Shown piece by piece: positions 9,701-28,300 of a stretch of 64,000 nucleotides of DNA. Position 1 is the first letter of the stretch; each line of letters opens with the position of its first letter. The position numbers and the translations under genes were made by a program. The notes under the pieces were generated by a model. That model worked only from the letters and a program-made list of their open reading frames with translations, did not search any database and was not told the origin of the DNA. This DNA is from a virus (taxonomy: Duplodnaviria > Caudoviricetes), in the IMG/VR virus record IMGVR_UViG_3300034175_000069; one strand, 5' to 3'.

Positions 9701-12536
9701 CTACGCCGGGGTCAGCGTCGCCACGACGCTGTCCAAGGACGCGGTCACCACCCAGGACGCCTCGCAGCTCAGCCCGACCGCGATGGACAAGCTGGACGGC
9801 CTGAAGCTGGCCGTCGGTCAGTCGGCCTGGGTTGCTGGCAACTCCGTCTTCGTGCGGAACAGCACGGGCGAGTGGTTCTACGCCTACACGGACGGGTCGC
9901 TGGACCTGGCTCCCACGTTCAGCGACGACGCGGACATGGCGGCCTTCTTCGGCAACACCACCGCCCCGGCCCCGGTCAAGGTCATCGTCACCGCCCCGAC
10001 GGCGGCCCCGGCTCCCCCGGCGGCCAACCTCTACGCCGGTCCGGCCATCTCCGGCTGGGCTGCTGAGGGGCTGCCCGACCCCACCGGCTTCGGTCACCTG
10101 GCCAGCTCGGCCGATGCGGTCGGGATGAAGGCGGGCGACTGGCTCTACGTCCAGGGCCTGACCGGCGGCGGCAACAGCGGCCTGTTCATTCAGCTGCACT
10201 CGGACGTGGACCCGGCCACCGGCGGGGACGTGGTCAAGCTCAGCCAGTGGGCGGCCGTGAAGGACGGCCAGGTCCAGCCGATCAAGAAGCCCAGCGGCAC
10301 GCTGGACTTCACCAGCTTCAGCCTGGTCGCGGCGGACTCGATCTACGCGCAGGGCAGTGCGGGCACCGCGCCTGCGCCGACCGTGCCTGCCACCCCCACC
10401 GCGAACGCCCCCATCGCGTCTGTGCCGTCCGCTCCCGAGGCCCCGGCCACTCCGGCCTACCCCGGCGCTCAGAAGCCCTCTCAGGAGGACATCAACGCCT
10501 GGGGCGGGTCGCTGACCAAGGACGGGCACATCCCGACCTCGGGCATGTACGTCACGGGCAAGGGCCCGATGTCGGGCAAGGTCATCTCGGTCTCGAAGGA
10601 CAAGACCAAGGCGGTCGTGCTCACCTCGGACGGGAAGAAGACCACCCGCCTGATCGAGGCCCTGAAGACCGACAAGTCGGCGAACTACAAGGCCTACGCG
10701 GCCCCGGTCACGCTGAAGGACATCCCCGGCGGGATGCCGCTGGCGGTTGACACGCCTGGAGAGGCGCTGGCCAAGACCGCGAAGGACGGGAAGTTCCGGG
10801 CCATCCTCACGGCGGCTCCGGGCGTCAGCGGCGGCCAGATGGTCGTCACGAAGACCACCGGCCCGTCGGGCAAGACCTACAACCGGGTGCACCTGACCCT
10901 GACCCCCGCCCAGCGGGAGCAGCTGGTCGCGTCGCTGGCGGGCTCCGGGGAGAAGGGCGACTGGGTCACCAGCTCCAAGATGTCGCAGGCGGTCGCCGCC
11001 GGTGACCTGCTGCCGATGCGGAAGTCCTCCACGGACAACCCGGACGGGACCCCGCGCTGGAAGGTGGACCCCGCCCAGGTGCCGCCGACCCACGAGGTCA
11101 CCGGCGTGGTGGACGACCCGGCCGCCAGCGGCGTCAAGATCGTCACGCTGAAGGACCGGAACACCGGCGAGGAGATCACCAGCCGGTTCCACCCCGGCAA
11201 GAGCCTGACGGTCTACGCCTGGGACGAGAACAAGCCGAAGAAGATCACCGCCGGTGCCTTCTCGGTCGGCGAGATCGCCAAGGCCCAGGGCTGGTCCCTG
11301 GTCACCGATGGCGGGATCTCGGCGGTCAAGGGCGGTGCGGAGAACGGCTCGCTCTACAACGAGCCCGGCTCGGCCGTGACCAAGAGCGCGCTGGGCCAGG
11401 TCTCGCACAGCTGGAAGACGCTGCGCAACGTCTCGGAGGACGGCGTCGTCATCGAGACGGTGGACCCGAAGGGCAGCAACGGGCACTCGACCACCGGCGT
11501 CACGGTGATCACGCTGCCCGAGGGTGTGGACGAGAAGTCCCTGGGCGCGGCGCTGGCCAAGATGGGGATCGACTACTCCCCGATGACCCAGGACTCGGCC
11601 AAGGACAACGTGCGGGGCGCGCTCCGCACGCTGCTGAGCCTGGACACCCACGACGTGGACACCCCGAAGCACTACACCGACGAGATGCTGTTCTCCCAGG
11701 CCGGGAAGACGATGGGCATCACCGACCTGGGCTGGCAGGACGTGCTGGTCGGGGTGGACGAGTCCACCGGCAAGACCAGCTTCTTCTGGTCGGACCGGGC
11801 GCGGAACGCGCTCGCCGCGAAGGCCAAGTACAACCTGGTCTACCGGGCGGCCACCACGGCCAACGCCGCGCAGATCGTGTCAACCGTGAAGTACGGCTCG
11901 GCCAGTTCGATCCTGAAGAAGACCACCGGGATGCTGGACGGCTCCGGCTCGGTCGGGAACGGTGCCTCGGCCAGCTCGGACAACGCCAACCACGCCGGGC
12001 ACGGGTCCTACGCCTCGGCCAGCACGGTCAACAAGCTGCCCAGCTCCAACGCCTCGGCCAGCTACAAGACCGCCGGGATGATGATCTACCACCGTCCCGA
12101 GGCGGTCCTGGGCCGGATCATGGACTTCCGGGTGGCCAACCACGACGCCTTCGGGATGGGCCACGGCCAGGGTGCCGACCACCTGGCCCACGCCACCTCG
12201 ATGTCCTCGGTGAAGGACTACTTCCTCGGCGGCGGGCTGCCGACGGAGGCGGTCGGCTTCATCGCCGTGCAGAGCGCTGAGGAGCGGCTGAAGGCGATCG
12301 AGCAGCTGAAGAAGGACGGCTTCGAGATGATCAACGGCCGCCCGATCGAGGACATCGTCATCACGAAGCAGAAGGCCGCGACGATGACCCCCGACGACCT
12401 GCCGCCGGTCACGATCCCGGCCAACGCCCGGCCGATCCTGGACCTGCCGGTCTCCTACGACACCGCTGCCCCGGCGGCGAGTGCTCCGGCCGCTGCTGCT
12501 CCCGTCACCGCTACCGCTGGAGATGCTGTCGCATGA
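3774..12536 (+). CDS. 2920-aa multidomain head-associated protein (N-terminal 2H phosphoesterase; HPRxxxGRF motif; PI3/4K/HipA-like kinase fold; repeats; unknown C-terminal domain)
   Basis: HVTL...PHLTL 2H motifs; LHPRAADGRFIDK; YYVK...NE...DAWLGNRD...DN...RIDNGG; GTGA and ATGA overlaps with neighbours; strong GC3 bias. Confidence 0.8.
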   Translation: MSDSPKYTTAIIAAVPAKADPVNDVVIEDAHVTLQFLGEADSLSPEQIKDIQDALALMAPNLYPFPADVAGTAELGPDKAKVLLVQSEPLTKLKELLGTVPAVSTAVAAAEQFPNWIPHLTLAYGDDGTQADGDGIEQVTIGSLELWLAEEHHVYELAKSAPGPVEEDSEVASVIAAGLKSFEEGLHPRAADGRFIDKFGVVKYLSPKGGWEYGKVEGINKDEDSGAIQVTVTPSDLSGKITGAESKVLSPKQLYHAPKAKAHLTIAAPGSKKVGGQGGSNPGGLYTIPVAFPKEGSNGQPEKYYVKQPKTKSHGANEALANDLYAEAGVPVPEVDIGSDGQIYSKIIEGKQDMAAQLNNPEWTDQIQRNFAVDAWLGNRDVFGMTYDNVLTDEHGTAWRIDNGGALLYRAMGEKKTDFGSQVTELDAFRQGKKAKIFGPSMTKAQELDGAERVVAISPSRIEEMVADAGLPKSLADTLKARRQYIANYYGLELPETKKADEAQEGSSAPLVDPADISATKGKARGWFKTTLAQAAFVLQTGDKVEFGDGKRVDPGVDDDGSPLSMIGAAAQLLGWQNEHGANAEIFVYKGKVTAGIPRPSHGQKLATADLADQRWQRGDTITSPLGNDAKILGWNSDTGAVLIQYPNQQPQLLDSKGTNANAGPWTVKRWDPPAQEDLDLSAPESATPEAQAPAPAPTPMVEDVPAPDTVPPTAEDLGIVIPTPGKTGQAAEAETAIKADLDQPLPAGTGAPAPAKTSAKGGAKTMVLGDGTEAAPGAEVVSKKDGKTYKFVKPKGQYSVVTDPNGDDPDKLLLKLASTMTQPGKEPTADAGAIEAPKTATGEIPALGMMAVSKDGHAGEITLISPDGKFVFITDANGVRKRKSTGTVTITSAPQAVDTTPKAAPGPLKDYGAAPDLKAAKEAFPGLDYDPAEDLDAGDMVIVGYADGSFGKEPYTGQPLDSLLQNTGGKVANHGTVKDYTGPISTQQLVQASAVKNNSTTFEVVWGGTIGFTDGTVGPSGGLVIWGVENGMPDPGYAFELPKEGQNVHILGSEENFALALPGGTGFQANDGWTGTASPAPLYGDEAKTPAEWSGQISVGQEISLDGQNWLTVTNVMASDSLQVEDSNGATAYLASSSPATYVLKAPPMKDADAPSPAFDPANDTTPDIPGADETTTTGPPTKKPSELVSGDVVVAFDGTYAIIEQAEKEDGFGGWNLTSLGTFETEWAPSSADLKYQGNIKAGSVDVPIGAFAGQFYPGVNFQPGPDHDMTVVSYPSLQDNGNQKFAVMINGDPENLAIVQVGPGAGADIGPDAVMGVYLAPFQTSAESGVDTGKVNDLFDASVTVDQTPPDHYWAMSDQGIDFGNAQYPIYASGSGGYYRIGPNGGQVWNAAQLEWESSSTTVTGMDKVWDGKPFEGKLKIPEGTSLSLYGAGSADYKPDAGEAVALITLPGTSGALIVSPSGSFSPGSKVYTVKGDGSGVYSPGYNVEDLGPGQITVIHDPFGPVDTGPALVHHQGPLAPTFLANKLNDYGYTPADGETFLIAQMPSGGMSVLTKQSDGTYKKIGYSGLGQKTWTLDEVIEQGNDVGADFYTWTHVPEGENGPTVVAGLPGDYAPFIPGEGQAVLKSTMPNGKVSIYLQQQPGGGWYLMSPDGTIDESSDAIKSNHVVQMKLSGKGSSSQKYELLHPTEGGTKATPDAPPTFSNQSTSFTPAPGQKVVQLLSYEGDDDPWFFVQSTPGGEWAPAPTNPEAGAPLGDSGMQAYLAKSLAAQPGAAGSKYTLVYDGTGSAAAPAVDTEDTPTPDFEGYIPQTGDKVISYAPNGTTDPYFYVQQGGEGPYKMAVGGQLSSSTVMQASEIPTNLGPEFGNDFHQEWPLPETTPAAPAGGGVFDGYQSDPGDNVVSFTGPTGGTTTVVKKDGTWQPIVNGQLEADDAYSQDTMEWAASQSGYTVNVLQGSLKGVPGEGAPLDTGGEHYAGVSVATTLSKDAVTTQDASQLSPTAMDKLDGLKLAVGQSAWVAGNSVFVRNSTGEWFYAYTDGSLDLAPTFSDDADMAAFFGNTTAPAPVKVIVTAPTAAPAPPAANLYAGPAISGWAAEGLPDPTGFGHLASSADAVGMKAGDWLYVQGLTGGGNSGLFIQLHSDVDPATGGDVVKLSQWAAVKDGQVQPIKKPSGTLDFTSFSLVAADSIYAQGSAGTAPAPTVPATPTANAPIASVPSAPEAPATPAYPGAQKPSQEDINAWGGSLTKDGHIPTSGMYVTGKGPMSGKVISVSKDKTKAVVLTSDGKKTTRLIEALKTDKSANYKAYAAPVTLKDIPGGMPLAVDTPGEALAKTAKDGKFRAILTAAPGVSGGQMVVTKTTGPSGKTYNRVHLTLTPAQREQLVASLAGSGEKGDWVTSSKMSQAVAAGDLLPMRKSSTDNPDGTPRWKVDPAQVPPTHEVTGVVDDPAASGVKIVTLKDRNTGEEITSRFHPGKSLTVYAWDENKPKKITAGAFSVGEIAKAQGWSLVTDGGISAVKGGAENGSLYNEPGSAVTKSALGQVSHSWKTLRNVSEDGVVIETVDPKGSNGHSTTGVTVITLPEGVDEKSLGAALAKMGIDYSPMTQDSAKDNVRGALRTLLSLDTHDVDTPKHYTDEMLFSQAGKTMGITDLGWQDVLVGVDESTGKTSFFWSDRARNALAAKAKYNLVYRAATTANAAQIVSTVKYGSASSILKKTTGMLDGSGSVGNGASASSDNANHAGHGSYASASTVNKLPSSNASASYKTAGMMIYHRPEAVLGRIMDFRVANHDAFGMGHGQGADHLAHATSMSSVKDYFLGGGLPTEAVGFIAVQSAEERLKAIEQLKKDGFEMINGRPIEDIVITKQKAATMTPDDLPPVTIPANARPILDLPVSYDTAAPAASAPAAAAPVTATAGDAVA

Positions 12537-13405
12537 CCGCGCCCGTGCAGTTCCCCAACCCCGCGATGGTGGAGACCACCTACCGGGTGACGACCGACCC
12601 GGTCACCGACACCGAGGAGGACCGGGTGCGCCTCCAGCCGGTCGGTGGCCTGGTCGCCGGTCTCGCCGACACCGGCGGCTGGAGCGTCGGCTGGGACGAG
12701 GACGGGGGCGACTACATCTCGGGTGTCATCCTGACCTCGGTGGAGGATCAGGGTGACTGGATCGTGGGCGTCTCGGACAACGGGCAGGCCTTCCGGTTCC
12801 GGGACCTGGACCCCTACGACGCAGTGACGATGTCGGCGGCTGGAGTTCCCCAGCCGCTGTCGGTGGTGCAGGCAGAAGTGATCCGAGGGGGAGTCTTGGC
12901 GAGTCAGCTGGACGCAGTCGTGGCACCGGACAACACGGTGGCCACCCTGATGCTGGAGACGGGTCTGGGCACCTACGTGCGCTACGCCGGGGACTGGCAG
13001 TTGCTCAGCAGCGACACCGGGGCCCTGGAGGACATGAGCCTGGTGGCAGTCGGTGCGGCGGCCCTGGATGTCTGGGACGCCGCTGACGCGGCCAGCCACA
13101 CGATCTCGGTCTTCGACCTCCCGGTGCCCAGCGCTGACGGCCCGGACATCGACCCGACCACGGACGTGGACGTGGAGACCACGGCGGCCATCGCGGCCAG
13201 CGGCGTGCAGATCCCGCAGATCGTCCGGACCGAAGACCTGGACCTCGGCATCCGCTACGCCAACACCCACCCGGCCGCGCGCTGGTACGTCACCAAGCGG
13301 GCTCGCGCGCTCAGCGCCTCCGCTCGGATCCCGGCGCACTGGAACGTGGCTCCAGTGGCCGTGACGCCCCCTTTCTCGATGGCCGGGCGGGAGATGGAGA
13401 TGTAG
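12533..13405 (+). CDS. head-module protein with C-terminal DUF6582-like domain
   Basis: C-terminus IPQIVRTEDLDLGIRYANTHPAARWYVTKRARALSASARIPAHW parallels a domain in the protease. Confidence 0.7.
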   Translation: MTAPVQFPNPAMVETTYRVTTDPVTDTEEDRVRLQPVGGLVAGLADTGGWSVGWDEDGGDYISGVILTSVEDQGDWIVGVSDNGQAFRFRDLDPYDAVTMSAAGVPQPLSVVQAEVIRGGVLASQLDAVVAPDNTVATLMLETGLGTYVRYAGDWQLLSSDTGALEDMSLVAVGAAALDVWDAADAASHTISVFDLPVPSADGPDIDPTTDVDVETTAAIAASGVQIPQIVRTEDLDLGIRYANTHPAARWYVTKRARALSASARIPAHWNVAPVAVTPPFSMAGREMEM

Positions 13406-13491
13406 TCCAGCTGGACTGCCCGGCGGCCATCCGATCGGCCGCTGGACTGTTCGCCGGACTGGCCGCTGCCGGGCAGCGACCACCCGATGGG

Positions 13492-14925
13492 ATGTACCTG
13501 GCCATCGTTGCTGCCGCACGTGTCAACGGGATGCTGCATGATCCTGCTGTGCTGACAGCCGCCAAGTGGCAGGACTGGCTGCACCCGCGCGGCAAGGACG
13601 GGCGCTTCATCGAGAAGCAGAGCTTCGTCAACGTCTTCGCCAGCGAGAACGCGCTGCTGTCCGACCGCACTGCGGTGCGCCGCCGGGCCAAGATCAGCGA
13701 CCTCCGTCCCGAGGGTGCCTACGTCGCCTACCAGGACGTGGAGGGCAACCCGATCCCGTCCGACGACGCGGCTGGCTTCCCCGCGCTGATCCCGGTCGAG
13801 CAGCTGTCCACGAAGGTCTCCACCGCGCCCAAGGCGCTGGCCCACCTCCAGCCCGGCGAGTCCGCGCGCAAGGAGGTCCAGGACGCCCTGGTCCCGGCGA
13901 TGAGCCAGGACGACTACGACGTGAAGATCGCCGAGATCAACGCCCAGATCCACGAGAAGCACCCCGAGCAGGCGGCGATCGTGTCAACCGGCCAGGGGGC
14001 CATCACCGACGCCGAGATGGAGAGCCACCTGGGCTTCATCGCCGAGGTGCACAGCCAGTACCTGGAGGGCGAGGGCCTGGGCTACGACTCGGCCTTCAAG
14101 GACAGCTTCGGCCTGTGGTCGGAGGAGTGGCAGCAGATCTTCGACGCGGTCGTGGACGAGGTCTACGACGAGGTCACGGTCAACCAGTCCAAGCCGAAGA
14201 ACCGCCGCGCCATCATGCTCGGCGGGCTGCCGGGGGCCGGGAAGTCCTCCACCCTGGATGCGATGGCGCAGAGCGGGTCCTTCCGCAAGGACGAGTGGAT
14301 CACGATCAACCCGGACCTGTTCAAGGACAAGATGTTCGAGCGGGGGCTGCACCCGGACATCGAGGGCCTGGCCCCGGCCGAGACGGCCAGCTTCGTGCAC
14401 GCCGCCAGCTCCGAGATGAGCTACATGCTGGAGCAGCTGCTGAGCGTCGAGGGCTACAACCTGATCTTCGACATCACGATGGGCGGCACGGCGCGCGCCG
14501 GGCAGAAGCCGAACTACGAGCAGGTCACCGACCACCTGGGCAACTGGGACTACGTCGTGGACGGCGTCTTCGTGGACGTGGACCCGGGCACCTCCCGGGA
14601 GCGGGTGGCGCTGCGCCACCAGCAGGGCCTGGACGCACTGCGCACGGGGCGCTCCCGGCGGCCGGACGATCCCGAGATCGTCAACGGCGGCCGGGTCGTG
14701 CCGGACTCCGTCATCGCGGACAACATCCTGGACGAGAACGACCCCGACGCCCAGCGCTACAACTCGGCGAACGCCCGGAACTTCGACCAGATGAAGGCCA
14801 CGTTCGTGCGGTGGGCGGAATGGGACAACACCGGCAAGAAGCCGGTCTTCATCGGCGGCAGTGGCACTGGTCCCGATGACACCGAGGGCACCCCCGGCTT
14901 CTATCCCGAGGAGCAGGCCGCATGA
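13492..14925 (+). CDS. zeta-toxin-family P-loop kinase with N-terminal HPRxxxGRF motif
   Basis: MLGGLPGAGKSS Walker A, INPDLFK, HAASS, YNLIFDITM; start may be GTG 13549. Confidence 0.8.
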   Translation: MYLAIVAAARVNGMLHDPAVLTAAKWQDWLHPRGKDGRFIEKQSFVNVFASENALLSDRTAVRRRAKISDLRPEGAYVAYQDVEGNPIPSDDAAGFPALIPVEQLSTKVSTAPKALAHLQPGESARKEVQDALVPAMSQDDYDVKIAEINAQIHEKHPEQAAIVSTGQGAITDAEMESHLGFIAEVHSQYLEGEGLGYDSAFKDSFGLWSEEWQQIFDAVVDEVYDEVTVNQSKPKNRRAIMLGGLPGAGKSSTLDAMAQSGSFRKDEWITINPDLFKDKMFERGLHPDIEGLAPAETASFVHAASSEMSYMLEQLLSVEGYNLIFDITMGGTARAGQKPNYEQVTDHLGNWDYVVDGVFVDVDPGTSRERVALRHQQGLDALRTGRSRRPDDPEIVNGGRVVPDSVIADNILDENDPDAQRYNSANARNFDQMKATFVRWAEWDNTGKKPVFIGGSGTGPDDTEGTPGFYPEEQAA

Positions 14926-15238: not shown

Positions 15239-17779
15239 ATGCCGCTGATGATGTCGGGGTTCGACCTTCAGCACCGTCCCACCCGGACGATGCGCGAAGC
15301 AGCCCGAGGCTCCAGCGATCCGGTCTCCGCCCTCGTGTCAACCGGCCAGGTCCGGTCGTGGGACCTGCTGACCCTGAAGTCCTCCTCGATCCCCGGAGCT
15401 TCCGACTGGGCCGAGCGCACGCTGGACGCGGTCGTTGCAGCCGCTGCAACGAGTGCGACCAAGCCGCTGGACTGCGCCGACTGCGAGGACGTGGGCTTCT
15501 ACGGCATCGCGGACGCCGAGGACACCGACAAGCTGGTCGGCCTGCTGCGCCGGGTGGGCGAGAACGGCTACGAGCAGCTGGTGGCCGGAGCCTGGCGGCC
15601 TTACGAGACCCGCTACGACCAGCACGTGGAAGTCCTCTCCCGGGACCTGGCCGGAGATCTGGCCGAGGCGTTGACCGCCGGTGCCACCGGCCTGGTCCGC
15701 CGGTACTTCTGGCCGATCGCCTTCCTGCCGCCCGAGCGCCTGATCGCTGCGGGACCAGCACCCGAGGAGGTGCTGAGCACTCCGCCGAAGGCAGCCACCG
15801 AGGACGTGACGGCCGGTCCCGAGGACGGCTGGACCGAGTACGCGATCGTGGACGAGCTGGACACCGGCGCGGTGCTGGAGCTGATCCGGCTGCGTCCGGG
15901 GCCCGAGCTGCTGGCCTACCGCAACGGCAAGTGGGACGAGGCTCCCGAGGTGCTGGCCCAGCTCCAGGGCGTCCAGCCTCCACCCCTGGTTGAGCTTGAC
16001 CAGGCCCAGCTGGACAACGTCCTGGAGCAGATCGGCCAGGGTCAAGGTGAGGCTGAGGGTTCCGAGGACAGCGGGGATCCGGGCGAAGGCCTGGACGAGG
16101 CCGACAAGACCGAGCCGGTCGCGGCGGCCGGGGAGAAGAAGCACACGCTGCCCGAGGGCGCGTTCCCCATCGACAACCGCGACGACCTGAAGAAGGCCGT
16201 CAAGGCGCTCGGCCGGGCGACGAACAAGAACGCCGCGAAGCGGCACATCATCAAGCGGGCCCGGGAGCTGAACGCTGTCGGCGTGCTTCCCGAGGACTGG
16301 GGGATCACGGCCGGAGCGAAGGGCGCGCTGGTCGCTGACGCCCCGCTGACGGTCTCCCCTGACCCGCGCGCCGAGAAGCTGCGCCGCTACTGGACCAGTG
16401 GCAAGGGCGCGGCCAAGATCCGCTGGGGGACGCCGGGCGACTGGACCCGGTGCTACCGCCAGCTGCGCAAGTACATGGGCGTGCGGGCCAAGGGCTACTG
16501 CCAGAACCTGCACAAGCGGGCCACGGGTCAGTGGTCCGGAGCCCGTGGGAACCGGACCGCAGGAGCGGTCGCAGCATCTGGGCGACCCGCTCAGGCCGTG
16601 CTGTCGATAGAAGCTGCGCTGGTCGCAGCGATGTCAACCGGCCGCTGGATCGGCCCGGGAGGAGAGAGCATGACCACGACCCTGAAGGACGGCATCTACG
16701 CCGAGGCAGGCAACGAGGGTGGCCTGCTCCGGACCCTCACCGCTGCGGGGTTCCCCGTGGCACCGCCGGACGACTGGTTCGCTGACCCTCAGCTGGAGGG
16801 TCCGACTCCGCTCACGGTGGACGACGACGGCCGGGTCTACGGCCACATCGCCACCCGGGACGTGGCGCACATCGGCCTGCCCGGCCGGGTGCACGCGCCG
16901 AAGTCCCGCACCGACTACGCCTACTTCAAGACCGGCCAGCTGGTGACCGCCAGCGGCAAGCGGATCAACGTCGGGCAGCTGACCCTGGCTGGCGGCCACG
17001 CGCCCCTCCAGGCCGACGCTGCGGCGGCCGTGGCCCACTACGACAACACGGCCAGCGCGGCGGCCGATGTCAACTGCGGCGACGACAAGTGGGGCATCTG
17101 GGTGGCCGGGTCGATCCGGCCGGAGGTCACCCCGAACCAGCTCCGCGTGCTCCGTGCGAGTGCGCCGTCCGGCGACTGGCGGCCGATCAACGGCAACCTG
17201 GAGCTGGTCGCCTGCTGCCAGGTCAACGTCCCCGGCTTCCCGGTCACCCGGGCGCGCGTGGCCAGCGGCGCGATCATGTCGCTGGTGGCCGCCGGTTCCC
17301 GGCCGCTCTACGCGATGCGCCTGGCCATGCTGGCCGACGCCGCTGTGGCCGAGCGCCTGACCGCGCTGGAGGCCCACGTTTACGGTGTAAGCGACGGCCC
17401 GGACCTGGTGGGCGACGAGTCTGTCGTGGCCGACGGTGAGCCGGTGGACGCCGATGCTTCCGTCACGACCGAAACGGACACCGCCGAGGAGGTCGAGGAG
17501 GAGGAGACTCCGGCCCCCGAGGAGAAGCCCGTCTCCGAGGCTGTCCAGCGTGCTCGCGCGCTGGCCGCCGAGCGCCGGGCGGCTGCCGCTGCCACTGAGG
17601 AGGTCCCGGCCGAGGAGGCTCCGGCCGTCGAGGCCGAGACCCCAGCCGAGGAGAACGTGGCCGAGCTGACCCCCGACGAGCAGGAGCGGGCCGACCGCCT
17701 GGCCGCGCTGCGTGCTCGCGTGCACGGCGGTGACAAGCAGCCGGTCGCCGCGTCCGCAGGTGACCCGGGAAAAGCCTGA
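15239..17779 (+). CDS. capsid maturation protease (multidomain)
   Basis: GRVYGHIA, TGQL, GGHAP, HYDN, DDKWGIWVAG, SGDWRPINGNLELVA, VNVPGFP as in cluster-B-like proteases; acidic low-complexity C-terminal scaffold-like tail. Confidence 0.85.
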   Translation: MPLMMSGFDLQHRPTRTMREAARGSSDPVSALVSTGQVRSWDLLTLKSSSIPGASDWAERTLDAVVAAAATSATKPLDCADCEDVGFYGIADAEDTDKLVGLLRRVGENGYEQLVAGAWRPYETRYDQHVEVLSRDLAGDLAEALTAGATGLVRRYFWPIAFLPPERLIAAGPAPEEVLSTPPKAATEDVTAGPEDGWTEYAIVDELDTGAVLELIRLRPGPELLAYRNGKWDEAPEVLAQLQGVQPPPLVELDQAQLDNVLEQIGQGQGEAEGSEDSGDPGEGLDEADKTEPVAAAGEKKHTLPEGAFPIDNRDDLKKAVKALGRATNKNAAKRHIIKRARELNAVGVLPEDWGITAGAKGALVADAPLTVSPDPRAEKLRRYWTSGKGAAKIRWGTPGDWTRCYRQLRKYMGVRAKGYCQNLHKRATGQWSGARGNRTAGAVAASGRPAQAVLSIEAALVAAMSTGRWIGPGGESMTTTLKDGIYAEAGNEGGLLRTLTAAGFPVAPPDDWFADPQLEGPTPLTVDDDGRVYGHIATRDVAHIGLPGRVHAPKSRTDYAYFKTGQLVTASGKRINVGQLTLAGGHAPLQADAAAAVAHYDNTASAAADVNCGDDKWGIWVAGSIRPEVTPNQLRVLRASAPSGDWRPINGNLELVACCQVNVPGFPVTRARVASGAIMSLVAAGSRPLYAMRLAMLADAAVAERLTALEAHVYGVSDGPDLVGDESVVADGEPVDADASVTTETDTAEEVEEEETPAPEEKPVSEAVQRARALAAERRAAAAATEEVPAEEAPAVEAETPAEENVAELTPDEQERADRLAALRARVHGGDKQPVAASAGDPGKA

Positions 17780-17812
17780 GCCTGGCCCCACGCCAGGCAC
17801 CAGCGCTGCTGG
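17767..17812 (+). other. putative programmed -1 frameshift signal
   Basis: G GGA AAA in the protease frame (17767-17773), 6-nt spacer, 7-bp stem GCCTGGC/GCCAGGC (17780-17798). Confidence 0.7.
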
Positions 17813-19197
17813 CTGCCCCGGGCCAGTCCGCCAAGGAGCGGGCGGCTGAGGCTCAGTCCAAGGCCGCCCAGCACATCGCCAAGGGCAACCCCGGCAGCGG
17901 GCCCATCCCGAAGAAGGCCGGGCGGAAGGTCGCCACCGAGGCCGGGGTCAAGCGCTACGGCCTGCCCATCGGCACGCCCCTGGGACAGGGCAAGGCGAAG
18001 AACGAGAAGGACGCCTACGACCGGTTCATGTCCCAGAGCACCCCGGCCGAGCTGACCAAGGCCGCCCAGTGGATGTCCAACGGGGACCTGGCGCTCACGG
18101 CCAAGGCGGTCTTCTCCACCCCGCACGGGAACGAGCGGAACGAGGCGGCCCGGATGGCGCTGGTCCGGGAGCTGGCCAACCGTGGGATCGACCCGCACAC
18201 GCTGGGCTACGACGGTGGCTACGTCCCGCTCAACCCGAAGCCGAAGAAGGACCCCACCCTCCCGGCCGAGGTGAAGGCCAAGAAGGATGCCAACCCGGGC
18301 AACCTGGGAGAGGTCCAGCTGAAGTCCGGGCTGGACGCCGAGAAGCTGCCCGACGCCGACCTGGCCGCGCTGACCGAGGCGGGCTGGAAGGGCGTGCCCG
18401 GCGACGACAAGGAGGCGGTCTACCCGCCTGCGGACGTGCTGCCGATCAACAGCTCCAAGCTCAGCGACGCGACCAAGTCCCAGCTGATCAAGGCTGGCTG
18501 GAAGCTCGGGGGCAAGGGCGAGTTCGAGCAGCTGACGCCGCCGCAGGACCGGTTGACAGCGGCCCGGGACAAGCTCGCCAAGGCGGCCGAGAAGGACACC
18601 GGACCGGCCGGGATCAACGAGGTCCAGCTGCGCTCGCAGGTGGACGCCGATGATCTGCCCGAGGCTGACCGGCAAGCGCTGCTGAAGGCCGGGTGGAAGG
18701 GCGCTCCCGACGACAAGAAGGAGGCGCTGTACCCGCCAGCCGACACCGCACCGCTGAGCACGGCGGGGATCAGCGACGAGACGAAGTCCAAGCTGATCAA
18801 GTCGGGCTGGAAGATCTCGGGCCAGGGCACCGACGAGACCCTGGTCCCGCCGAAGGACCGGGTGACAGCCGAGCGGGACCGGGTGACCAAGGCGGTCGAG
18901 ACCGAGGCCAAGCGGGCGGCTTCCGCTGCCGAGGCCGAGGCCAAGAAGCAGGCGGCGGCGGCAGCTGCGGCCCAGAAGGCGGCGGACAAGGCGGCGGCGG
19001 CTGCGGCGAAGTCCGGGGCTACCCCGGCCCAGACCGATGCCTCAGACGCGGCCATGTCGGAGGCGCAGGCGGCCGTGACCACGGCGCGCAAGGCCTACGA
19101 CGATGCGGTGACTGCGATCGGGGACGCCCTCTCCAAGGGCGAGATCAACGAGCAGGAGGCGCAGGACCGCCGGAACGCCCTGGGCAGGAAGCCCTGA
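17773..19197 (+). CDS. -1 frame extension of the protease gene (474 codons; ORF track starts it at ATG 18028)
   Basis: Frame open from 17764 with no ATG/GTG/TTG before 18028, yet it encodes RKVATEAGVKRYGLPIGTP; contains a ~103-aa tandem duplication. Confidence 0.7.
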   Translation, partial: SLSLAPRQAPALLAAPGQSAKERAAEAQSKAAQHIAKGNPGSGPIPKKAGRKVATEAGVKRYGLPIGTPLGQGKAKNEKDAYDRFMSQSTPAELTKAAQWMSNGDLALTAKAVFSTPHGNERNEAARMALVRELANRGIDPHTLGYDGGYVPLNPKPKKDPTLPAEVKAKKDANPGNLGEVQLKSGLDAEKLPDADLAALTEAGWKGVPGDDKEAVYPPADVLPINSSKLSDATKSQLIKAGWKLGGKGEFEQLTPPQDRLTAARDKLAKAAEKDTGPAGINEVQLRSQVDADDLPEADRQALLKAGWKGAPDDKKEALYPPADTAPLSTAGISDETKSKLIKSGWKISGQGTDETLVPPKDRVTAERDRVTKAVETEAKRAASAAEAEAKKQAAAAAAAQKAADKAAAAAAKSGATPAQTDASDAAMSEAQAAVTTARKAYDDAVTAIGDALSKGEINEQEAQDRRNALGRKP

Positions 19198-19212
19198 CAG
19201 CCGGTTGACACG

Positions 19213-19253
19213 ACGAAGGGCCCCGCACCAGAGGTGCGGGGCCCTTTCGTTTG
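19213..19253. terminator. bidirectional intrinsic terminator
   Basis: AAGGGCCCCGCACC-AGA-GGTGCGGGGCCCTT 14-bp stem followed by TCGTTT, between convergent genes. Confidence 0.85.
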
Positions 19254-19259
19254 TGCAGG

Positions 19260-19652
19260 TCAGAAGGGAGGAGTGTCGTCCTTCGGCTTATCGGCCTGCT
19301 CGGGCTCGGTGGCCAGCGCGTTCCCGCTCAGCTGGGCCACCAGATCCTGGAAGGTCAGCGCCTCCATCTGCTTCTGCTCGCTGTCGGCGACCTTCTCCAC
19401 CTCCGGAGCGGCAGCCGCCGCGTCCTTGGCCGCCTTGTAGGCGTCGAAGTCCCGGGTGGACACGATCTCCCGGGCCTCCTTGGCCTTCTCCAGCGCCTCG
19501 GTCAGGAGCGAGATCTGCTTGTCCAGGATCTGGACCTGCTGTTCCTGCGTCGCGCCGGGCAGGCCCTTGGTCAGCTGGAAGATCCAGAAGGCGCGCTTGC
19601 GGATCGAGTGGCGGAGCTTGCGGACGTTGCGGTCGGTGCGGGGAGCGGTCAT
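19260..19652 (-). CDS. hypothetical coiled-coil protein
   Basis: ATGA overlap with upstream membrane gene. Confidence 0.65.
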   Translation of the reverse strand: MTAPRTDRNVRKLRHSIRKRAFWIFQLTKGLPGATQEQQVQILDKQISLLTEALEKAKEAREIVSTRDFDAYKAAKDAAAAAPEVEKVADSEQKQMEALTFQDLVAQLSGNALATEPEQADKPKDDTPPF

Positions 19653-19888
19653 GGCTGGTCCTCGTTCTTCTTCTCGGGGTCAGGAGCGGTCACTGCGGCT
19701 ACGACGATGGCGGTCCCGAAGATCAGGACGACGCCGAGCACCGGGGAGGCGGAGGCGATCAGCGCTACGACGATGATCCAGCCGACGAGCTGCCACCACC
19801 GGTCCGCCTTCGTCTTCGGCTTGCGATCGGTGGCCCCGCCGACCATGACGGGCCCGATCTTCACTCCCCAGATGTCCTTGTCGGTCAT
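19649..19888 (-). CDS. small membrane protein, leaderless
   Basis: MTDKDIWGVK..., two TM segments; ATG 6 nt after -10 box. Confidence 0.7.
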   Translation of the reverse strand: MTDKDIWGVKIGPVMVGGATDRKPKTKADRWWQLVGWIIVVALIASASPVLGVVLIFGTAIVVAAVTAPDPEKKNEDQP

Positions 19889-19925
19889 GGGAGAAGTATT
19901 GCATGGCCCTGTCAACACTGTCAAC
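19889..19925 (-). promoter_or_regulatory. tandem-box sigmaA-type promoter
   Basis: TTGACA-GTGTTGACAGGGCCATGC(18)-AATACT-6 nt-ATG. Confidence 0.75.
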
Positions 19926-20058
19926 TAGGACTTGCCGCGATTCTCGTTGACCACCCGATCGGGTACTGTCCCGACCGAAGCGACGACGCACGGTGACCAC
20001 TCCCGCGCGATGACCCTTCCGGTGATGTAGAGCCCCTTCCCACCGGAGGCATCCCTTC

Positions 20059-21654
20059 ATGGACCCCCTCGCCGACTTCCAGGGAGACCTGGACCGTCTG
20101 GCCGACCTCACCGACGAAGAACTCTCCGCCCTGGAGAGCCGTCTGGTCGAGGCGTTCGACGCTGCCGACTCCGGCGGTGACGACGCAGCTGCTGGTCAGC
20201 TGGCCGACGCTCTGGACTCCGTCCGCAACGAGATCGGGCAGCGCTCCGACGCTCCGCCCGCCGAGCCGGTGGCTGCTGCCGCCGACACCGCCACCACCGA
20301 CCCCGCCCCGACCAGCCAGGAGAGCACCCCCGTGACCGCTTCCACCGTCGTCAACGACGTCGAGCCCGAGGTCCCGGAGGGCCGGGCTCCCGTCGTCTCC
20401 AGCACCAGCGCTGTTGTCGCTGGCGCGAACCTGGGCGGGTACGACTCCGGCCAGGTCATCCCAGACCTGAACCGCATGTCCAAGGCGATGGCCGACCGCA
20501 TCTCCACCCTGGGCCGCGTCGGCGGTGCCGACGGGGAGCAGGTGCTGGTGGCCTCGATCCGCAGCAACATCCCCGACGACCGCTTCCTGAAGTACGGGGA
20601 CGCGATGGGGAACCGCGAGAAGATCGACGCCGCGACCAACCTGGACGCCATCACGGCGGCCGGTGGCTGCTGCGCCCCGCTGGACACCCGCTACGACCTG
20701 TTCGGCATCGGCGACACCGTCCGGCCGGTCAAGGCCAGCCTGGCGGGCTTCGGCGCTGACCGGGGCGGCATCCGCTTCTTCGAGGGTCCGACCCTGGACC
20801 AGATCGGCGCGGCTGTCGGCTTCTGGACCTGCGCCGACGACGCGGCCGTGGACGCCGACGACGAGGCGACCTGGAAGGTCTGCGCCCGTGTCAACTGCCC
20901 CGACGAGTCCGAGGCCCTGGTCCAGGCGGTCACGCTCTGCCTGACCTTCGGCGTCATGCAGTCCCGGGTCTTCCCGGAGATGGTCACGGCCAACAACAAG
21001 CTGGCCCTGGTCGCCCAGGCCCGCCTGTCGGAGTCGGCGCTGCTCTCCCAGATCCGCGCGCAGTCCAAGAAGGTCACCGGCGGCACCGTGGAGGCCGGTC
21101 TCGGCTTCCTGCGCACGCTGCTGGACACCGCTGACCGGGCCATCGCCTACTACCGCGACCGGCACCGCATCGCGGCGAACGTGCCGCTCAGCGCCCGCTT
21201 CCCGGTCTGGATGATCCAGGCGATCGACGCCGACATGGTCCGGCAGCCGCCCTCGACCGCGCAGATGGCCGACAACTTCGGCATGAGCGTGGACGAGATC
21301 GAGTCCTTCTTCCGGGACCGCAACGTCAACGTCGCCTGGACCTTGGACTCCCACGTCCCGGGCACCAACGGCGGTGGCTTCTACGGCAACGTCGCGGACG
21401 GCGGGGTCCTCCCGGCCTTCCCGGAGACCGTGCAGTGGTCGCTCTCCATCGAGGGCAGCTTCCTGTTCCTCGACGGCGGCCAGCTGGACCTCGGCATCGT
21501 CCGCGACAGCACGCTGGTCCGGACCAACGACTACCAGACCTTCACGGAGACCTTCGAGTCGGCCGTCCGGACCGGTGGTGAGGCCCTGTGGGTCACCACG
21601 CCGGTGGCCACCACGGGTCGCTACGCCGGGCCCATCACCTACCCGGCCGTCTGA
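20059..21654 (+). CDS. major capsid (hexamer) protein with N-terminal scaffold-like segment
   Basis: 531 aa; AITAAGGCCAPLDTRYD, DRGGIRF, KVCARVNCP, LFLDGGQLDLGIVRDSTLVRTNDY as in Rosebush-type hexamer proteins; RBS GGAGG. Confidence 0.85.
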   Translation: MDPLADFQGDLDRLADLTDEELSALESRLVEAFDAADSGGDDAAAGQLADALDSVRNEIGQRSDAPPAEPVAAAADTATTDPAPTSQESTPVTASTVVNDVEPEVPEGRAPVVSSTSAVVAGANLGGYDSGQVIPDLNRMSKAMADRISTLGRVGGADGEQVLVASIRSNIPDDRFLKYGDAMGNREKIDAATNLDAITAAGGCCAPLDTRYDLFGIGDTVRPVKASLAGFGADRGGIRFFEGPTLDQIGAAVGFWTCADDAAVDADDEATWKVCARVNCPDESEALVQAVTLCLTFGVMQSRVFPEMVTANNKLALVAQARLSESALLSQIRAQSKKVTGGTVEAGLGFLRTLLDTADRAIAYYRDRHRIAANVPLSARFPVWMIQAIDADMVRQPPSTAQMADNFGMSVDEIESFFRDRNVNVAWTLDSHVPGTNGGGFYGNVADGGVLPAFPETVQWSLSIEGSFLFLDGGQLDLGIVRDSTLVRTNDYQTFTETFESAVRTGGEALWVTTPVATTGRYAGPITYPAV

Positions 21655-21698: not shown

Positions 21699-22853
21699 GT
21701 GCCTGGTTACGTGCAGGACAACGCCGCTTCAGTCCGAGGCCGCGCGCTTCGGGTGACGCAGCTGGGGTCCGACGGTGCACCCATCACCGGATCCTCGTGT
21801 GACGTGTACCTGACCGGCGGCTTCATCTCGTTCCAGTTCACCCCGGAGTACTCCGAGGGCGACGAGATCGAGATCAAGAACGCCGCTGGAGAGACCTGCG
21901 TCTACTACAAGCTCCCCGACACCCTGAAGAACGTCGGGCTGAGCATGAGCATCTGCGACCCGGACCCCGTCCTGACGCAGATGCTGGTCGGTGGTGAGGT
22001 GCTGACCGCTGGTGGCACCTCCACCTTCGCCCCCTCGGGGACCGACGCCGGGGACATGGTGGCCATCGGCTACGCCTCCGAGCTGGCCGGTGCCGTGGCC
22101 AACCCGAACGGCGTGGCCGTGGAGGTCTGGGCCGACGCGGTGGTCAACGGGCGCTCTGCGTCCCGCGCCCCGTTCTGGCACTACCTGTTCCCGTCGGCGC
22201 AGTTCCGGCTGGACGGCGACCGGGTCATCGAGAACGGCAACCTGGCCACGGCCTTCGCAGGCACGGGCACGGGCAACGAGGCCTTCGGCTCCGGTCCGAA
22301 CCTGGACCTGGCCGGAGTCACCCCGGCTCCGCCCGCTGGTGCCTTCGACTGGCGCTTCCCGGCCCACACGGACCGGCCCTTCCTCTACACGCGCAGCTTC
22401 TTCGCGCCGCTGGGGCTGAAGGGTCAGTTCGACAACCTCGGGATCCCGATCGTGCGGATCACCGCTGGGGATCCGGGCGTCTTCAGCCCGGTCAACGCCA
22501 CGCGACCGGCCGATCTGGCCGACCTCCAGTCGCAGGGCGCTCTGGGCAGCACCACCGCCTGGGACCCCAACGAGTTCGTCACGCTGCGGGACAACACCGA
22601 GGCGTACTGGGACGGGGCCGCCTGGGTCGCCGGTCGGGCTCCGGCTCCGGCCATCGTGGCCACCGGCGCGACGGCGGGCACGCCGGGCATGTTCACGCCT
22701 CCGGGCGCGGACGCTCCGGCCGACCTCGATGCGCTGGAGGATGTCGTCGCCACGCCGACCACTGCCTGGACCGTCGGGCAGCGGATCGTCCTGGCGGACG
22801 GTACGACGGCACACTGGAACGGCACCGCCTGGGTTGCGGGCTCCGCGACCTGA
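21699..22853 (+). CDS. major tail protein with two C-terminal repeat domains
   Basis: RALRVTQL, EYSEGDEIEIKNAAGETC, ICDPDP; tandem AG.PG.F.P...W.G.AW.AG domains; RBS AGGAGG. Confidence 0.8.
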   Translation: MPGYVQDNAASVRGRALRVTQLGSDGAPITGSSCDVYLTGGFISFQFTPEYSEGDEIEIKNAAGETCVYYKLPDTLKNVGLSMSICDPDPVLTQMLVGGEVLTAGGTSTFAPSGTDAGDMVAIGYASELAGAVANPNGVAVEVWADAVVNGRSASRAPFWHYLFPSAQFRLDGDRVIENGNLATAFAGTGTGNEAFGSGPNLDLAGVTPAPPAGAFDWRFPAHTDRPFLYTRSFFAPLGLKGQFDNLGIPIVRITAGDPGVFSPVNATRPADLADLQSQGALGSTTAWDPNEFVTLRDNTEAYWDGAAWVAGRAPAPAIVATGATAGTPGMFTPPGADAPADLDALEDVVATPTTAWTVGQRIVLADGTTAHWNGTAWVAGSAT

Positions 22854-24606: not shown

Positions 24607-24655
24607 CATGACCGGCTGACAGACTGCAAGCGCACGTGCACGCCCCGCTGATGAG

Positions 24656-25153
24656 ATGGAGATGTCGATGCCACGCAAGACGTTCAGGGTCGCTGCGGCG
24701 GTCGAGCCGATCAGCTTCGACCTGGAGGGCCCGATCCGGGGGATCCAGAACTTCCCCTGCCGCGACCGGATGGCCGCCGGTTCGCTGATGCGCTTCGCCG
24801 AGATGTTCTCCTCGATCAAGGACGAGGCCGAGGGCTCTCCCGAGGCCGCCTCCGACGGCGCGAAGGCCATCCCCGCGATCCGCCAGTTCTTCGACTCCGC
24901 CCTCCAGAAGGAGGGCCGCTCCCGCTTCTGGGACATGATCAACGACGACGACGAGGGCATCCCGCTGGACACCCTGGTCGAGGTCGCTGGCTGGCTCGCG
25001 GAGGTGTACTCGGGTGGACGCCCTACTGGGACGAACTCCGGCAGTACATCGGAGGGGACCTCAACTGGCGACGGTTCTCCGGCTACGCCCTCAGCCGGGG
25101 ACATCGTCGAGTACTCACGACCCTCACAGCTGACGAGTTCTACGACCTCGTAG
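24656..25153 (+). CDS. tail assembly chaperone
   Basis: Immediately before tape measure; ends W..EVYSGGRPT plus Ser/Thr-rich tail. Confidence 0.7.
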   Translation: MEMSMPRKTFRVAAAVEPISFDLEGPIRGIQNFPCRDRMAAGSLMRFAEMFSSIKDEAEGSPEAASDGAKAIPAIRQFFDSALQKEGRSRFWDMINDDDEGIPLDTLVEVAGWLAEVYSGGRPTGTNSGSTSEGTSTGDGSPATPSAGDIVEYSRPSQLTSSTTS

Positions 25154-25308
25154 AGCACTGGCTGGAGGAGAGGTCGATCGAGGACAAGGAACAGCACGAC
25201 GCCCGGGATCGGGTCAGGGTCAACCTGGCCAGGGCCACGAAGGTGGCCGAGCAGATGGCCTCGGGTGAGGACGTGAGCGACGTGCCGCCCCACCTGCTGG
25301 GGAGGTAG
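25021..25308 (+). CDS. -1 frame tail-chaperone extension (gpT-like)
   Basis: Start-less frame PYWDELRQYIGGDLNWRRFSGYALSRG...ADEFYDLVEHWLEE...PPHLLGR* overlapping the chaperone 3' end. Confidence 0.55.
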   Translation, partial: PYWDELRQYIGGDLNWRRFSGYALSRGHRRVLTTLTADEFYDLVEHWLEERSIEDKEQHDARDRVRVNLARATKVAEQMASGEDVSDVPPHLLGR

Positions 25309-25381
25309 CAGGACCGGCGGGGCTCGGTTGACACGGGCCCCGCCGGACGGGACAAGCCGTACAGGACAGGGGGGTGCGCGG

Positions 25382-28300
25382 GTGGCAATCGTCGGGACAG
25401 CGTTCGTCCGGCTGAAGGTCATCGGCGACACCCTGGCCAACGACATCGGCAAGTCCGTCAAGCAGTCCGTCGATGCCTCCTCCGCCGACCTGGACAAGGC
25501 CGGGGAGGACGTAGGCAAGAAGGTCAGCGACAGCACCGGCAAGGCGCTGGGCGACGGCATCAACGAGAAGATGGGCCCGCTCGCGGACTCCATCGGCGAC
25601 CAGATCGGTCGCCGCATGGGCGAGAACATGAACAAGAGCCTGCGGGTCAAGGTCGTCTCGGCCGTGACCAACAGCTTCGAGTCCGCCAAGACCGAGGTCC
25701 AGGGCTTCGGCGAGAAGTTCAAGCCCTCCATCGACAAGTTCACGACGGACTTCAAGAAGCAGACCGAGGGCGGCCTGAAGAAGGCGCTCTCCGGGTCGCT
25801 GTTCGCCATGCTCGGCACGGCGATCACCGTGCTGCCCTCGATGGTCGCCTTCGGTGGCGCGGTCGCCGGTGCACTGGTGTCAACCGTCATCACCGGGCTG
25901 GCAGCGCTGGGTCCAGCGGTAGCCGGTGGCGCGCTCGCGGCGGTAGGCGGGCTCGCTGCGATCACCATCAGCATGGGCCTGCTGAAGGCCGCGATGGACG
26001 TGCAGTCCCCCGCGATGGAGGTCTTCCGGGGCAACCTGCTGAACCTGAAGACGGCGTTCGCCGAGCCCGTGGCCGCTGGCCTGGCGACAGCTGCGCCCGC
26101 GCTCCAGCAGATGTCCGACCAGCTGTTCCCTGCCCTGAACCTCCAGCTGGAGACCCTGGGCTTCGTCGCGGCCGGGATCATCCAGGACTTCGCCGACATG
26201 GCCACCACCTCGGCCAACGTCGAGCGGCTGAACACCGTCCTGGCCAACAACAACACCTTCGTGGCCGGGGCCGGGGCCGGGATGGTCGGCTTCGCCCAGG
26301 CCGCGCTGATCCTGTTGTCCCACCTGGGCCCGGTGACCGACTTCCTGGGCCAGGGGATCCAGGATCTGGGCGAGTGGGCCGCCCGGACGATGGGTGCCGC
26401 TGAGGCCACCGGTGCCCTGGACGGCTTCATCACCCGATCGTTCGACGCGCTGCGCTACTTCGTCGGCATCCTGTGGGACTTCGGCGCGGGCGTGGTCAAC
26501 GTCTTCAAGGCCGCCTTCGGGGCCAGCGGCGGGATGCTGACCAACCTGCACGACGTGGCCGCGTCGTTCCGGGCATGGACCGGGGACGAGACCAACCAGA
26601 CCCGGATGACCGCCTTCTTCGAGAAGATGCGGGACATCGCGGGGCAGGTGCTGGACATCTTCATCCCGCTCGGCAAGGCCGGGCTGGGGGCCCTGGAGGA
26701 CACCGACCTCACCGCCGTGACCCAGGGCCTGGACGGGCTGAAGGCTCTCGGCCCGCCGATCGCGCAGATGTTCAACAGCATCAAGGACGCCGCTGGCCCG
26801 GCGCTGATGGACACCTTCCTGAACCTGGTCCAGGTCATCACGCAGCTGGCCGATAGCGGCGTGCTCTCAGCTCTGACCGGCGCGTTCTCCAACCTGCTGG
26901 CGATCATCTCCGCCGTGCTGGCCATCCCCGGGGTGGGTCAGCTGCTGGCCTTCGTGGCCGGGCTCGCGGTGATGATGAAGACGGTCATGCTGGTCGTGAA
27001 CGTCCTGAAGCTGCTCTGGCCTGCGATCCAGCTGATCATCGGCATCATCCGGGTGCTGGCTGCCGTCTTCGGTGGCATCCCGCTGGCCATCGCGGCTGTC
27101 GTGATCGCCCTGGTCTGGTTCCTGACCCAGACCGAGACCGGGCGCGCGATCCTGGCTGCCGCCTGGAACGCCATCAAGGTGGCCATCAGCGCGGCCATCG
27201 ACGGACTGGTCATCGCTTTCAACTGGCTGGTCGAGGCCTTCACGACCGCCTGGAACGCGATCACGAGCTTCCTGAGCGGGCTGGGCGGCTGGTTCGCCGG
27301 GGTCTTCGCCACGATCGGCGCGGCCATCTCCACCGCGTGGAACGCCGCGCTGGCCTTCATCTCCGGGCCGATCGGCGCGATCCGGGACTTCATCGTCTCG
27401 GTCTTCAACGGGATCCTGGGCTTCATCCAGATGATCTTCAACGCCTACCTGCTGGTCATCACGACGGTCTTCACGGCGATCTGGGGCTTCATCCAGCCGA
27501 TCCTGACGGCCATCGGCGGCTTCTTCGTCGCGGTCTTCAACGGGATCATGGCCGTGGTCCAGGGCTTCGTGAACGTGCTCTACGAGATCTGGATCCGGGT
27601 CTTCCCGCTGCTGCTGCTGCCGATCCGGATCTTCTACGGCGTCGTGATCTTGATCTGGCAGGAACTGTCGGCCGCCGTGACCGCCGTGGTCCAGGTGCTC
27701 TGGGACTGGATCCAGGCCGCCTGGACCGCGATCTACGACGCGGTGAGCGCGACGGTGCAGGCCATCTCGGACTTCGTCATCGGGGTCTGGAACGCGATCT
27801 GGGGCTTCCTCCAGCCGATCATCCAGGCGATCTGGGACTTCATCGTCTCGGCCTGGAACGGGATGAAGGACGCCGTCGGGGCAGCGATCCAGGCGATCAG
27901 CGATGTCGTCCACTCGGTCTGGGATGCGATCTCCGGCTTCATCAACACCGTCGTCGGCGCGATCGTGGACTTCGTCCAGGGCCGCTGGGAGATCATGCGC
28001 GGCAACATCGAGACCGCGCTGAACGCGATCAAGGGCGTTGTCGAGTCGATCTGGAACGGGATCTCCGGCTTCATCGGGACCGTCATCGGTGGGATCTCCA
28101 CTGCGATCTCCACGGTCTGGACCGGCATCTCCACTGCGATCAGCACCGCGATGGGGACCGCCAAGTCCACCATCGAGACGGTCTGGGGCAACATCGAGGG
28201 CTTCATCCAGGGCGCTCTGGACCGGATCAAGGGCCTGATCAACGCGGTCTGGGGCACGATCGGCGACATCGGCGAGGGCATCCTGGACGGCCTGAAGACG

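Follow-up and report, generated by a model that had tools for sequence, protein, structure and literature searches.

The 64,000-nucleotide stretch of DNA analysed here (the window, called W where it is set beside the loci of relatives, which carry L numbers) is part of an 85,437-bp IMG/VR viral contig (record IMGVR_UViG_3300034175_000069; CheckV completeness 99%; genome GC content 69%). Our subject is the 3' end of its capsid (prohead) maturation protease gene, behind which a second long open reading frame (ORF) continues in the -1 frame. The protease gene occupies positions 15239-17779 on the plus strand; its zero-frame product has 846 amino acids (aa), with the protease domain at about residues 498-690. 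The last codons of the gene (17762-17779) read GAC CCG GGA AAA GCC TGA and hold the slippery heptamer G GGA AAA (17767-17773, plus strand) in the zero frame. A 6-nt spacer (17774-17779, plus strand) contains the zero-frame stop TGA (17777-17779) and is followed by a GC-rich hairpin (17780-17798, plus strand) with a perfect 7-bp stem and a 5-nt loop, a candidate frameshift stimulator. In the -1 frame a TGA at 17761-17763 is followed by an uninterrupted stretch from 17764 to 19197, whose first ATG, GTG or TTG is reached at 18028, after 88 codons. The extension encoded in this frame (17773-19197, plus strand) thus comprises 474 codons and a stop, without a start codon before 18028. Because stops of both frames bound the zone of overlap, the frames can be joined only within the 13 nt that hold the heptamer, and a fusion made there would have 845 + 474 = 1319 aa. 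An earlier note on this DNA had described the phased heptamer, the spacer, the stem, the open -1 frame and its 88 start-less codons, and all of them were confirmed at these positions.

The upstream gene was identified as a maturation protease because of matches to PHROG families, the annotation of its phage homologues and a structure model of medium confidence. PHROG head-maturation-protease families match it at E values of 1e-50 to 1e-60 over residues 498-812, among them phrog_18402 'head maturation protease' (3.6e-52), and homologous genes of isolated Arthrobacter and Microbacterium phages are annotated as capsid maturation proteases. The model of the protease domain, with a mean predicted local distance difference test score (pLDDT) of 62, has as its best match among Protein Data Bank (PDB) structures T4 gp21 (Z 6.4, root-mean-square deviation 3.6, 122 aligned residues), followed by herpesvirus assemblins and proteases (Z 5.7-3.5); these matches are consistent but middling. 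Nearly invariant His and Ser columns are seen in the protease alignment (A3). No Pfam, NCBIfam or PDB sequence matches to the protease were found. DNA similarity to isolated phages is limited to 250-300 bp of the protease core, shared with Arthrobacter, Gordonia and Microbacterium phages that carry no frameshift annotation, and GTDB genomes contain only distant protease homologues, whose junctions are uninformative.

Given the rarity of its codons and of the sequences AAAA and GGGAAA, the presence of the heptamer at the end of the protease gene goes beyond chance. Among 136 Lys codons in six genes of the window AAA is used once, in the slippery heptamer itself; GGA makes up 5% of Gly codons in the same genes. 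AAAA and GGGAAA each occur once on the plus strand of the entire window, both at the heptamer site. When both strands were scanned for A/T-type heptamers that end an open frame with a long -1 continuation, only C CCT TTC at 13369 (plus strand) and one CCCTTTG (minus strand) also qualified elsewhere in the window. The 45 nt past the heptamer fold at -21.1 kcal/mol (z -1.9). The hairpin lacks a T-run and is therefore not terminator-like, and no Rfam family matches the hairpin region. A pseudoknot, in which the hairpin loop was suggested to pair with GGG near 17820, had to be rejected as unsupported: the pairing would span only 3 bp, and folding yields competing alternatives.

Judged by GC content at third codon positions (GC3) and by alignment with homologues, the 88 start-less codons are coding. 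Over 17782-18024 GC3 is 0.914 in the -1 frame, compared with 0.88-0.94 in neighbouring genes. Homologues of the extension, collected from a 5.8-billion-protein collection and by a full HMMER scan, align from about codon 13 on, with conserved blocks preceding the first ATG. In this alignment (A1) an invariant Leu (codon 15) stands within an AAL(L/V/T)AA motif, and an invariant RYGLPIGTP block lies further on. In the window the former appears as ALLAA (17803-17817, plus strand), a putative site of cleavage by the maturation protease, ten residues past the junction, and the latter belongs to the conserved core domain of the family (17923-18255, plus strand), which begins with RKVA..RYGLPIGTPLG and is located partly upstream of the first ATG. 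That ATG (18028-18030, plus strand) was chosen by gene callers as the start of a 389-aa protein (P0002). In the family it corresponds to an internal Met, mostly conserved and replaced by Thr in the two closest homologues, and on this comparison of sequences it is not credible as a start. The extension also contains a tandem duplication (18310-18933, plus strand) of a ~103-aa module with an AGWKG motif, the copies being 59% identical (E 2e-40). The AlphaFold model of the extension has a helical core, with pLDDT >90 at residues 81-165, and long C-terminal helices; nothing in BFVD or the PDB matched it. The extension family is small (26 representatives at 50% identity). No usable ESM Atlas match and no Pfam, NCBIfam or PHROG family match were obtained for the extension, tblastn against 50,697 isolated phages gave nothing, and no homologue was found in GTDB genomes.

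Among the homologues of the extension region are stand-alone proteins of 259-295 aa as well as fused forms. The family is usually encoded by a separate gene with a short N-terminal peptide, and enzyme-like cargo is found in its homologues. In relatives the core is fused to an N-terminal domain of ~400 aa without known function (P0003, P0009) or to a NUDIX protein (P0013), and in L050 (4999-7107; P0017, 864 aa) it is combined with a Zeta-like kinase that follows an LTAG motif and with an HPR..GRF motif. The joining of one core to such varied domains suggests that the extension family is a carrier or anchor module for head-internal cargo. The earlier note had regarded the RYGLPIGTP-type motif as typical of phage head proteins, and the motif indeed turns up again in proteins of the head module, such as the portals of another phage group, at their C-termini. 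There, in L013-L023 and L030-L047 (for example, L016:2100-3884), …GVRRYGLPIGTPLG… is situated ~120 residues before the C-terminus of portals of ~600 aa. Since GVRRYGLPIGTPLG is thus also present in the portals of a different phage group, it looks like a portable short linear element of head-interior proteins.

The junction in related phages

For comparison we used the loci of the best 80 of 311 protease relatives in IMG/VR. Proteases of the relatives are 66-74% identical to that of W, and two kinds of junction were distinguished behind them. In the own-start class, which comprises six lineages (L001, L002, L003, L011, L025 and L213), the downstream gene has an ATG or GTG of its own, usually where the junction overlaps or abuts the protease stop (GTGA, ATGA, TGATG), and the encoded proteins begin with an additional peptide of ~12 residues ahead of the AAL-AA motif. 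In the frameshift-type class, with five lineages (W, L009/L048, L050, L211 and L212), the downstream ORF lies in the -1 frame, and the added N-terminal peptide is missing in all five. A canonical start for this ORF is lacking in W, L009/L048, L211 and L212; L050 has only GTGs, 20 and 41 nt past the stop, without a Shine-Dalgarno sequence. The L009/L048 type is represented by two independent assemblies from two samples, L009 and L010, that are identical at the junction.

The heptamer follows this division. It is found 0-4 codons before the protease stop as G GGA AAA in W and as G GGA AAC in the other four frameshift-type lineages, with GGGAAA occurring once per locus. None of the six own-start lineages has a slippery heptamer, and GGGAAA is absent from those of their loci that were checked. 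The conservation that the earlier note had proposed to look for in relatives was therefore borne out with either A or C as the last base: GGGAAA(A/C) is present in 5/5 frameshift-type and 0/6 own-start lineages (Fisher p ~0.002, hand-calculated). In all five frameshift-type loci a stable structure begins 1-9 nt past the heptamer (z -1.7 to -6.7), with -21 to -31 kcal/mol over 45 nt and, in L211, -57.5 kcal/mol and z -6.7 over 70 nt; the structures of L050, L211 and L212 are stronger than that of W. Four own-start relatives are weakly structured at the same place and show no stable structure in the first 45 nt. The features of a frameshift signal found here are accordingly a phased heptamer in the overlap of the two frames, a structure downstream of it, a coding frame that depends on the shift, and conservation across relatives.

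In a maximum-likelihood tree of the proteases L050 and L009 are basal, and W is placed in an unresolved fork with own-start lineages. Because L050 and L009 branch basally, the frameshift layout looks ancestral and appears to have been maintained through substantial divergence. Distant relatives encode the protease together with a different C-terminal extension as one ORF of ~1500 aa. The existence of these in-frame polyproteins implies that protease-extension fusions are viable and that covalent forms are common in the wider family.

Three further loci deserve mention. L095:4885-4916 (the same as L163) was considered as another example and rejected: it has a 1-nt deletion just after a conserved C CCA AAA, and ~48 relatives encode one ~1500-aa protease polyprotein. 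The break in L095 could be an error, the mark of a defective phage, or a lesion rescued by slippage at the pre-existing heptamer. In the distant relative L063 (5620-5632) C CCA AAA is located 10 nt before the protease stop, and the -1 ORF begins with LTAG and LHPRG..F motifs, its first start codon (Met) falling inside a conserved motif. L063 probably represents a further frameshift junction, in a single contig for which no relatives were found; its heptamer may merely encode a conserved G-P-K. In L025 (100-150) the downstream gene continues in the frame of the protease, with only TGA CCC before its GTG, and read-through of the stop codon would yield the same kind of fusion.

Probable frameshifting and alternative explanations

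Taken together, the sequences make it highly probable that a conserved programmed -1 ribosomal frameshift at the 3' end of the protease gene yields a 1319-aa protease-extension fusion. This had been proposed in the earlier note from the window itself, and the proposal gains from the recurrence of the layout in four other lineages and its absence from the six own-start relatives. Most ribosomes would stop at TGA 17777 and release the 846-aa protease. A fraction of them would pause at the hairpin 6 nt downstream of the heptamer, with GGA in the P site and AAA in the A site; both tRNAs would then slip one base back onto GGG AAA, and the -1 frame would be read for 474 codons. Re-pairing in W is good at both sites (GGA to GGG, AAA to AAA), and in the G GGA AAC variants that at the A site is near-cognate. 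The amount of the extension would be a fixed fraction of that of the protease. As the extension has no start codon, frameshifting would also be its sole route of synthesis.

What we infer beyond the layout of the genes are the slip itself, its efficiency, and the two steps that may follow it, delivery to the procapsid and cleavage. The protease would carry the attached extension into the procapsid and probably cuts the fusion at the conserved ALLAA|P, ten residues past the junction, which would leave a head-internal protein of ~460 aa. Delivery and cleavage are suggested by ALLAA-type motifs that also occur immediately ahead of the protease domain and where the N-terminal region of the capsid protein ends. 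In the stand-alone homologues the short N-terminal peptide would do the delivery and be removed at the same motif. The earlier note saw in the fusion a minor form of a protease/scaffold. The fusion part of that proposal is supported; the identity of the extension as a scaffold is unproven, since its homologues are joined to varied domains and the capsid protein has a delta-like region of its own. The latter is the acidic, low-complexity N-terminal region of ~200 aa (20059-20660), which ends at AITAA|GG and is likely a delta-like scaffolding domain removed by the protease.

Several observations weigh against programmed frameshifting at this site. In 4/5 frameshift-type lineages the A site holds AAC, for which E. 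coli data suggest a lower efficiency, although a proven A AAA AAC case exists (PMC4066793). For a genome of 69% GC, the hairpins of W and L048 have modest z-scores. Phage and host are uncultured, and the length of the A-run rests on the assembly. In addition, CTG codons at 17776, 17782, 17806 and 17809 make non-canonical initiation conceivable, and L050 has its two GTGs past the stop. These codons lead to the alternative that the extension is translated independently, either from one of the CTGs, which lie near the stop in the -1 frame, or by re-initiation after TGA 17777, the heptamer being incidental; the stop/start overlaps of the relatives (GTGA, ATGA, TGATG) indicate that such coupling is a habit of the family. 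Yet CTG initiation is very rare in bacteria, and the CTGs here are not preceded by a Shine-Dalgarno-like sequence. Neither CTG initiation nor re-initiation would explain why the heptamer is built from the rarest codons, why it recurs in 5/5 against 0/6 lineages, or why a hairpin accompanies it each time, and we regard independent translation as improbable.

A doubt of another kind concerns the sequence itself. The frame break might stem from a mistake in sequencing or assembly, or from a recent mutation of the A-run; the gene would then really be an in-frame fusion (with five A's) or simply broken. The record is a metagenome-assembled viral contig, and the similar break in L095 is a 1-nt deletion when compared with its ~48 in-frame relatives. 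Such an error is nevertheless very improbable in view of the same -1 relation and heptamer in five phages from different samples and assemblers, with L009 and L010 in agreement. Long ORFs elsewhere in the contig are unbroken, including that of 2920 aa and all head genes; an in-frame version would leave the rare GGA AAA codons without a reason; and an in-frame fused homologue >835 aa was not found, which by itself is weak evidence. It is more improbable still that only the 389-aa protein from ATG 18028 is made and that the 88 codons upstream are a decaying remnant. Gene callers do select that start, but the supposed remnant would hold the most conserved block of the family, at full coding GC3 and without a stop. 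Position 18028 has no Shine-Dalgarno sequence at a useful distance, its Met is internal in every homologue, and the same truncation would need to have recurred in L009, L211 and L212. We give just as little credence to slippage of RNA polymerase on the A-run, which, by adding an A to some mRNAs, would produce the same -1 frame fusion in place of a ribosomal slip. At four A's in W and only three in each of the remaining lineages, the run is far below the lengths known for polymerase slippage; moreover, X XXY YYZ phasing and a downstream hairpin are features of a ribosomal shift.

Neighbouring genes and a second candidate site

The head module, as listed for the window, begins with the portal gene (2131-3777) and continues with genes for a 2920-aa polyvalent protein, a 290-aa protein, a Zeta-toxin-like kinase and, between this kinase and the protease, a 104-aa protein. 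Two small minus-strand genes (19260-19652 and 19649-19924) are situated between the extension and the gene for the major capsid protein (20059-21654; 531 aa), which is followed by the genes for the major tail protein (21699-22853) and the tape measure (25328-28699). The gene order is common to W and its relatives, and the junction, being located between the protease and capsid genes, is a head-module rather than a tail site, as the earlier note had maintained. The two minus-strand genes matched no PHROG family. A 263-aa plus-strand ORF at 19205-19996 looks spurious; its translation is Arg/Pro-rich, and relatives have the two small minus-strand genes at this place. A good match to a sigma-70-like promoter was seen on the minus strand at 19924-19895, and no promoter-like or terminator-like sites were found on the plus strand within 17000-20200. 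The window encodes no tRNA genes.

The heptamer C CCT TTC at 13369-13375 (plus strand; context 12533-14925) is a second candidate -1 frameshift site. It is phased with the zero frame of the 290-aa gene, 36 nt ahead of that gene's stop; the ORF of the Zeta-like kinase is open in the -1 frame from 13138. C CCT TTC is kept in 6/6 clade loci that cover the region, CCT being 4.5% of Pro codons, and in 5/6 loci a conserved peptide is encoded upstream of every plausible kinase start. Against this site speak the low GC3 of the 84-nt gap (0.71) and the lack of a consistent downstream structure. The scan revealed no canonical A/T-type heptamer where the presumed tail-assembly-chaperone ORFs end, ahead of the tape-measure gene (24620-25330), and the usual tail frameshift may be absent or atypical in the W phage.

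Relation to known systems

Among tailed phages, the best-known conserved frameshifts are those of tail-chaperone genes and of a few capsid genes. The earlier note likened the junction to the frameshift of the lambda G/GT-type tail assembly chaperones, for which Xu, Hendrix and Duda (2004) are cited, and the comparison holds for the mechanism and fails for the family. As in lambda G/GT, ribosomes shifting by -1 at a G GGA AAN-type heptamer late in the upstream ORF would give a C-terminally extended minor product at a fixed ratio, and the position of the site is kept among phages of divergent sequence. The lambda site, however, belongs to the tail module, where it lies between the major tail and tape-measure genes and joins parts of a chaperone, whereas the W site is in the head module, its upstream product is the maturation protease, and its downstream ORF is elsewhere an independent gene. 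Being located between the protease and capsid genes, the W site is not a member of the lambda G/GT family.

Head genes offer further parallels. The major head protein gene of Lactobacillus phage A2 (Garcia et al. 2004) is said to be frameshifted at C CCA AAA followed by a stem-loop, and T7 10A/10B arise from a -1 frameshift in the capsid gene. In both, as proposed for W, a -1 shift in a head gene gives an extended second form, which in A2 and T7 enters the capsid. Unlike these capsid subunits with a short or decorative extension, the W product would join an enzyme to a 474-aa member of a separate family with a putative cleavage site at the joint. Protease and scaffold are co-expressed from nested or fused genes in lambda C/Nu3, Mu I/Z and P2 gpO. 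There, too, one locus gives the protease alone and the protease joined to a second polypeptide of head assembly that is later processed, but through in-frame internal starts or plain fusions; W would use recoding, and its extension is a scaffold only by conjecture. The internal proteins of T4 carry a capsid-targeting sequence that is cut by gp21. The likeness to W, here inferred, is that a removable N-terminal element brings cargo into the procapsid and the maturation protease releases it, and the stand-alone homologues of the extension have a short N-terminal peptide before AAL(V/L)AA. In W, unlike T4, frameshifting would attach the entire protease as the removable element, and the motif and the proteins are unrelated.

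A head-module protein linked to variable cargo, as one gene or as two in different frames, is also found in MuF-cargo fusions, and the PRFect paper (PMC10885494) suggests that frameshifting may link MuF-like and VIP2 genes that lie in separate frames. In that case the carrier is MuF and the frameshift is a software prediction, whereas the carrier in W is the protease and the proposal has comparative support. A search of the open-access literature yielded no account of frameshifting where a maturation-protease gene ends, the PRFect remark being the nearest; the junction in W would thus be a known recoding mechanism at a site for which no report was found in that literature.

These phages offer a natural experiment, in which sister lineages either have the frameshift layout or have a start codon and an N-terminal peptide. 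They also provide a compact and testable frameshift cassette from high-GC phages, in which the rules for slippery sites are poorly known. For annotation the consequences are direct: gene callers truncate the downstream gene in every frameshift-type genome, which thereby loses its most conserved motif, and pipelines that seek frameshifts in tail genes alone would miss this class. If the proposed frameshift is real, it would be a simple means of adjusting how much of an internal head protein is made for a given amount of protease, and covalent attachment to the protease could stand in for a targeting peptide. We would go further only tentatively. A clade of uncultured, probably actinobacterial phages may load its capsids by recoding-based tethering, with two conserved -1 frameshift sites in a single head operon. 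At C CCT TTC the Zeta-like kinase would be fused to the 290-aa protein and at G GGA AAN the RYGLPIG-domain protein to the protease, in each case a cargo protein to one of head assembly, with a linker that the protease cuts; frameshift, in-frame fusion and removable peptide might then be interchangeable ways to address a protein to the procapsid and to set its copy number.

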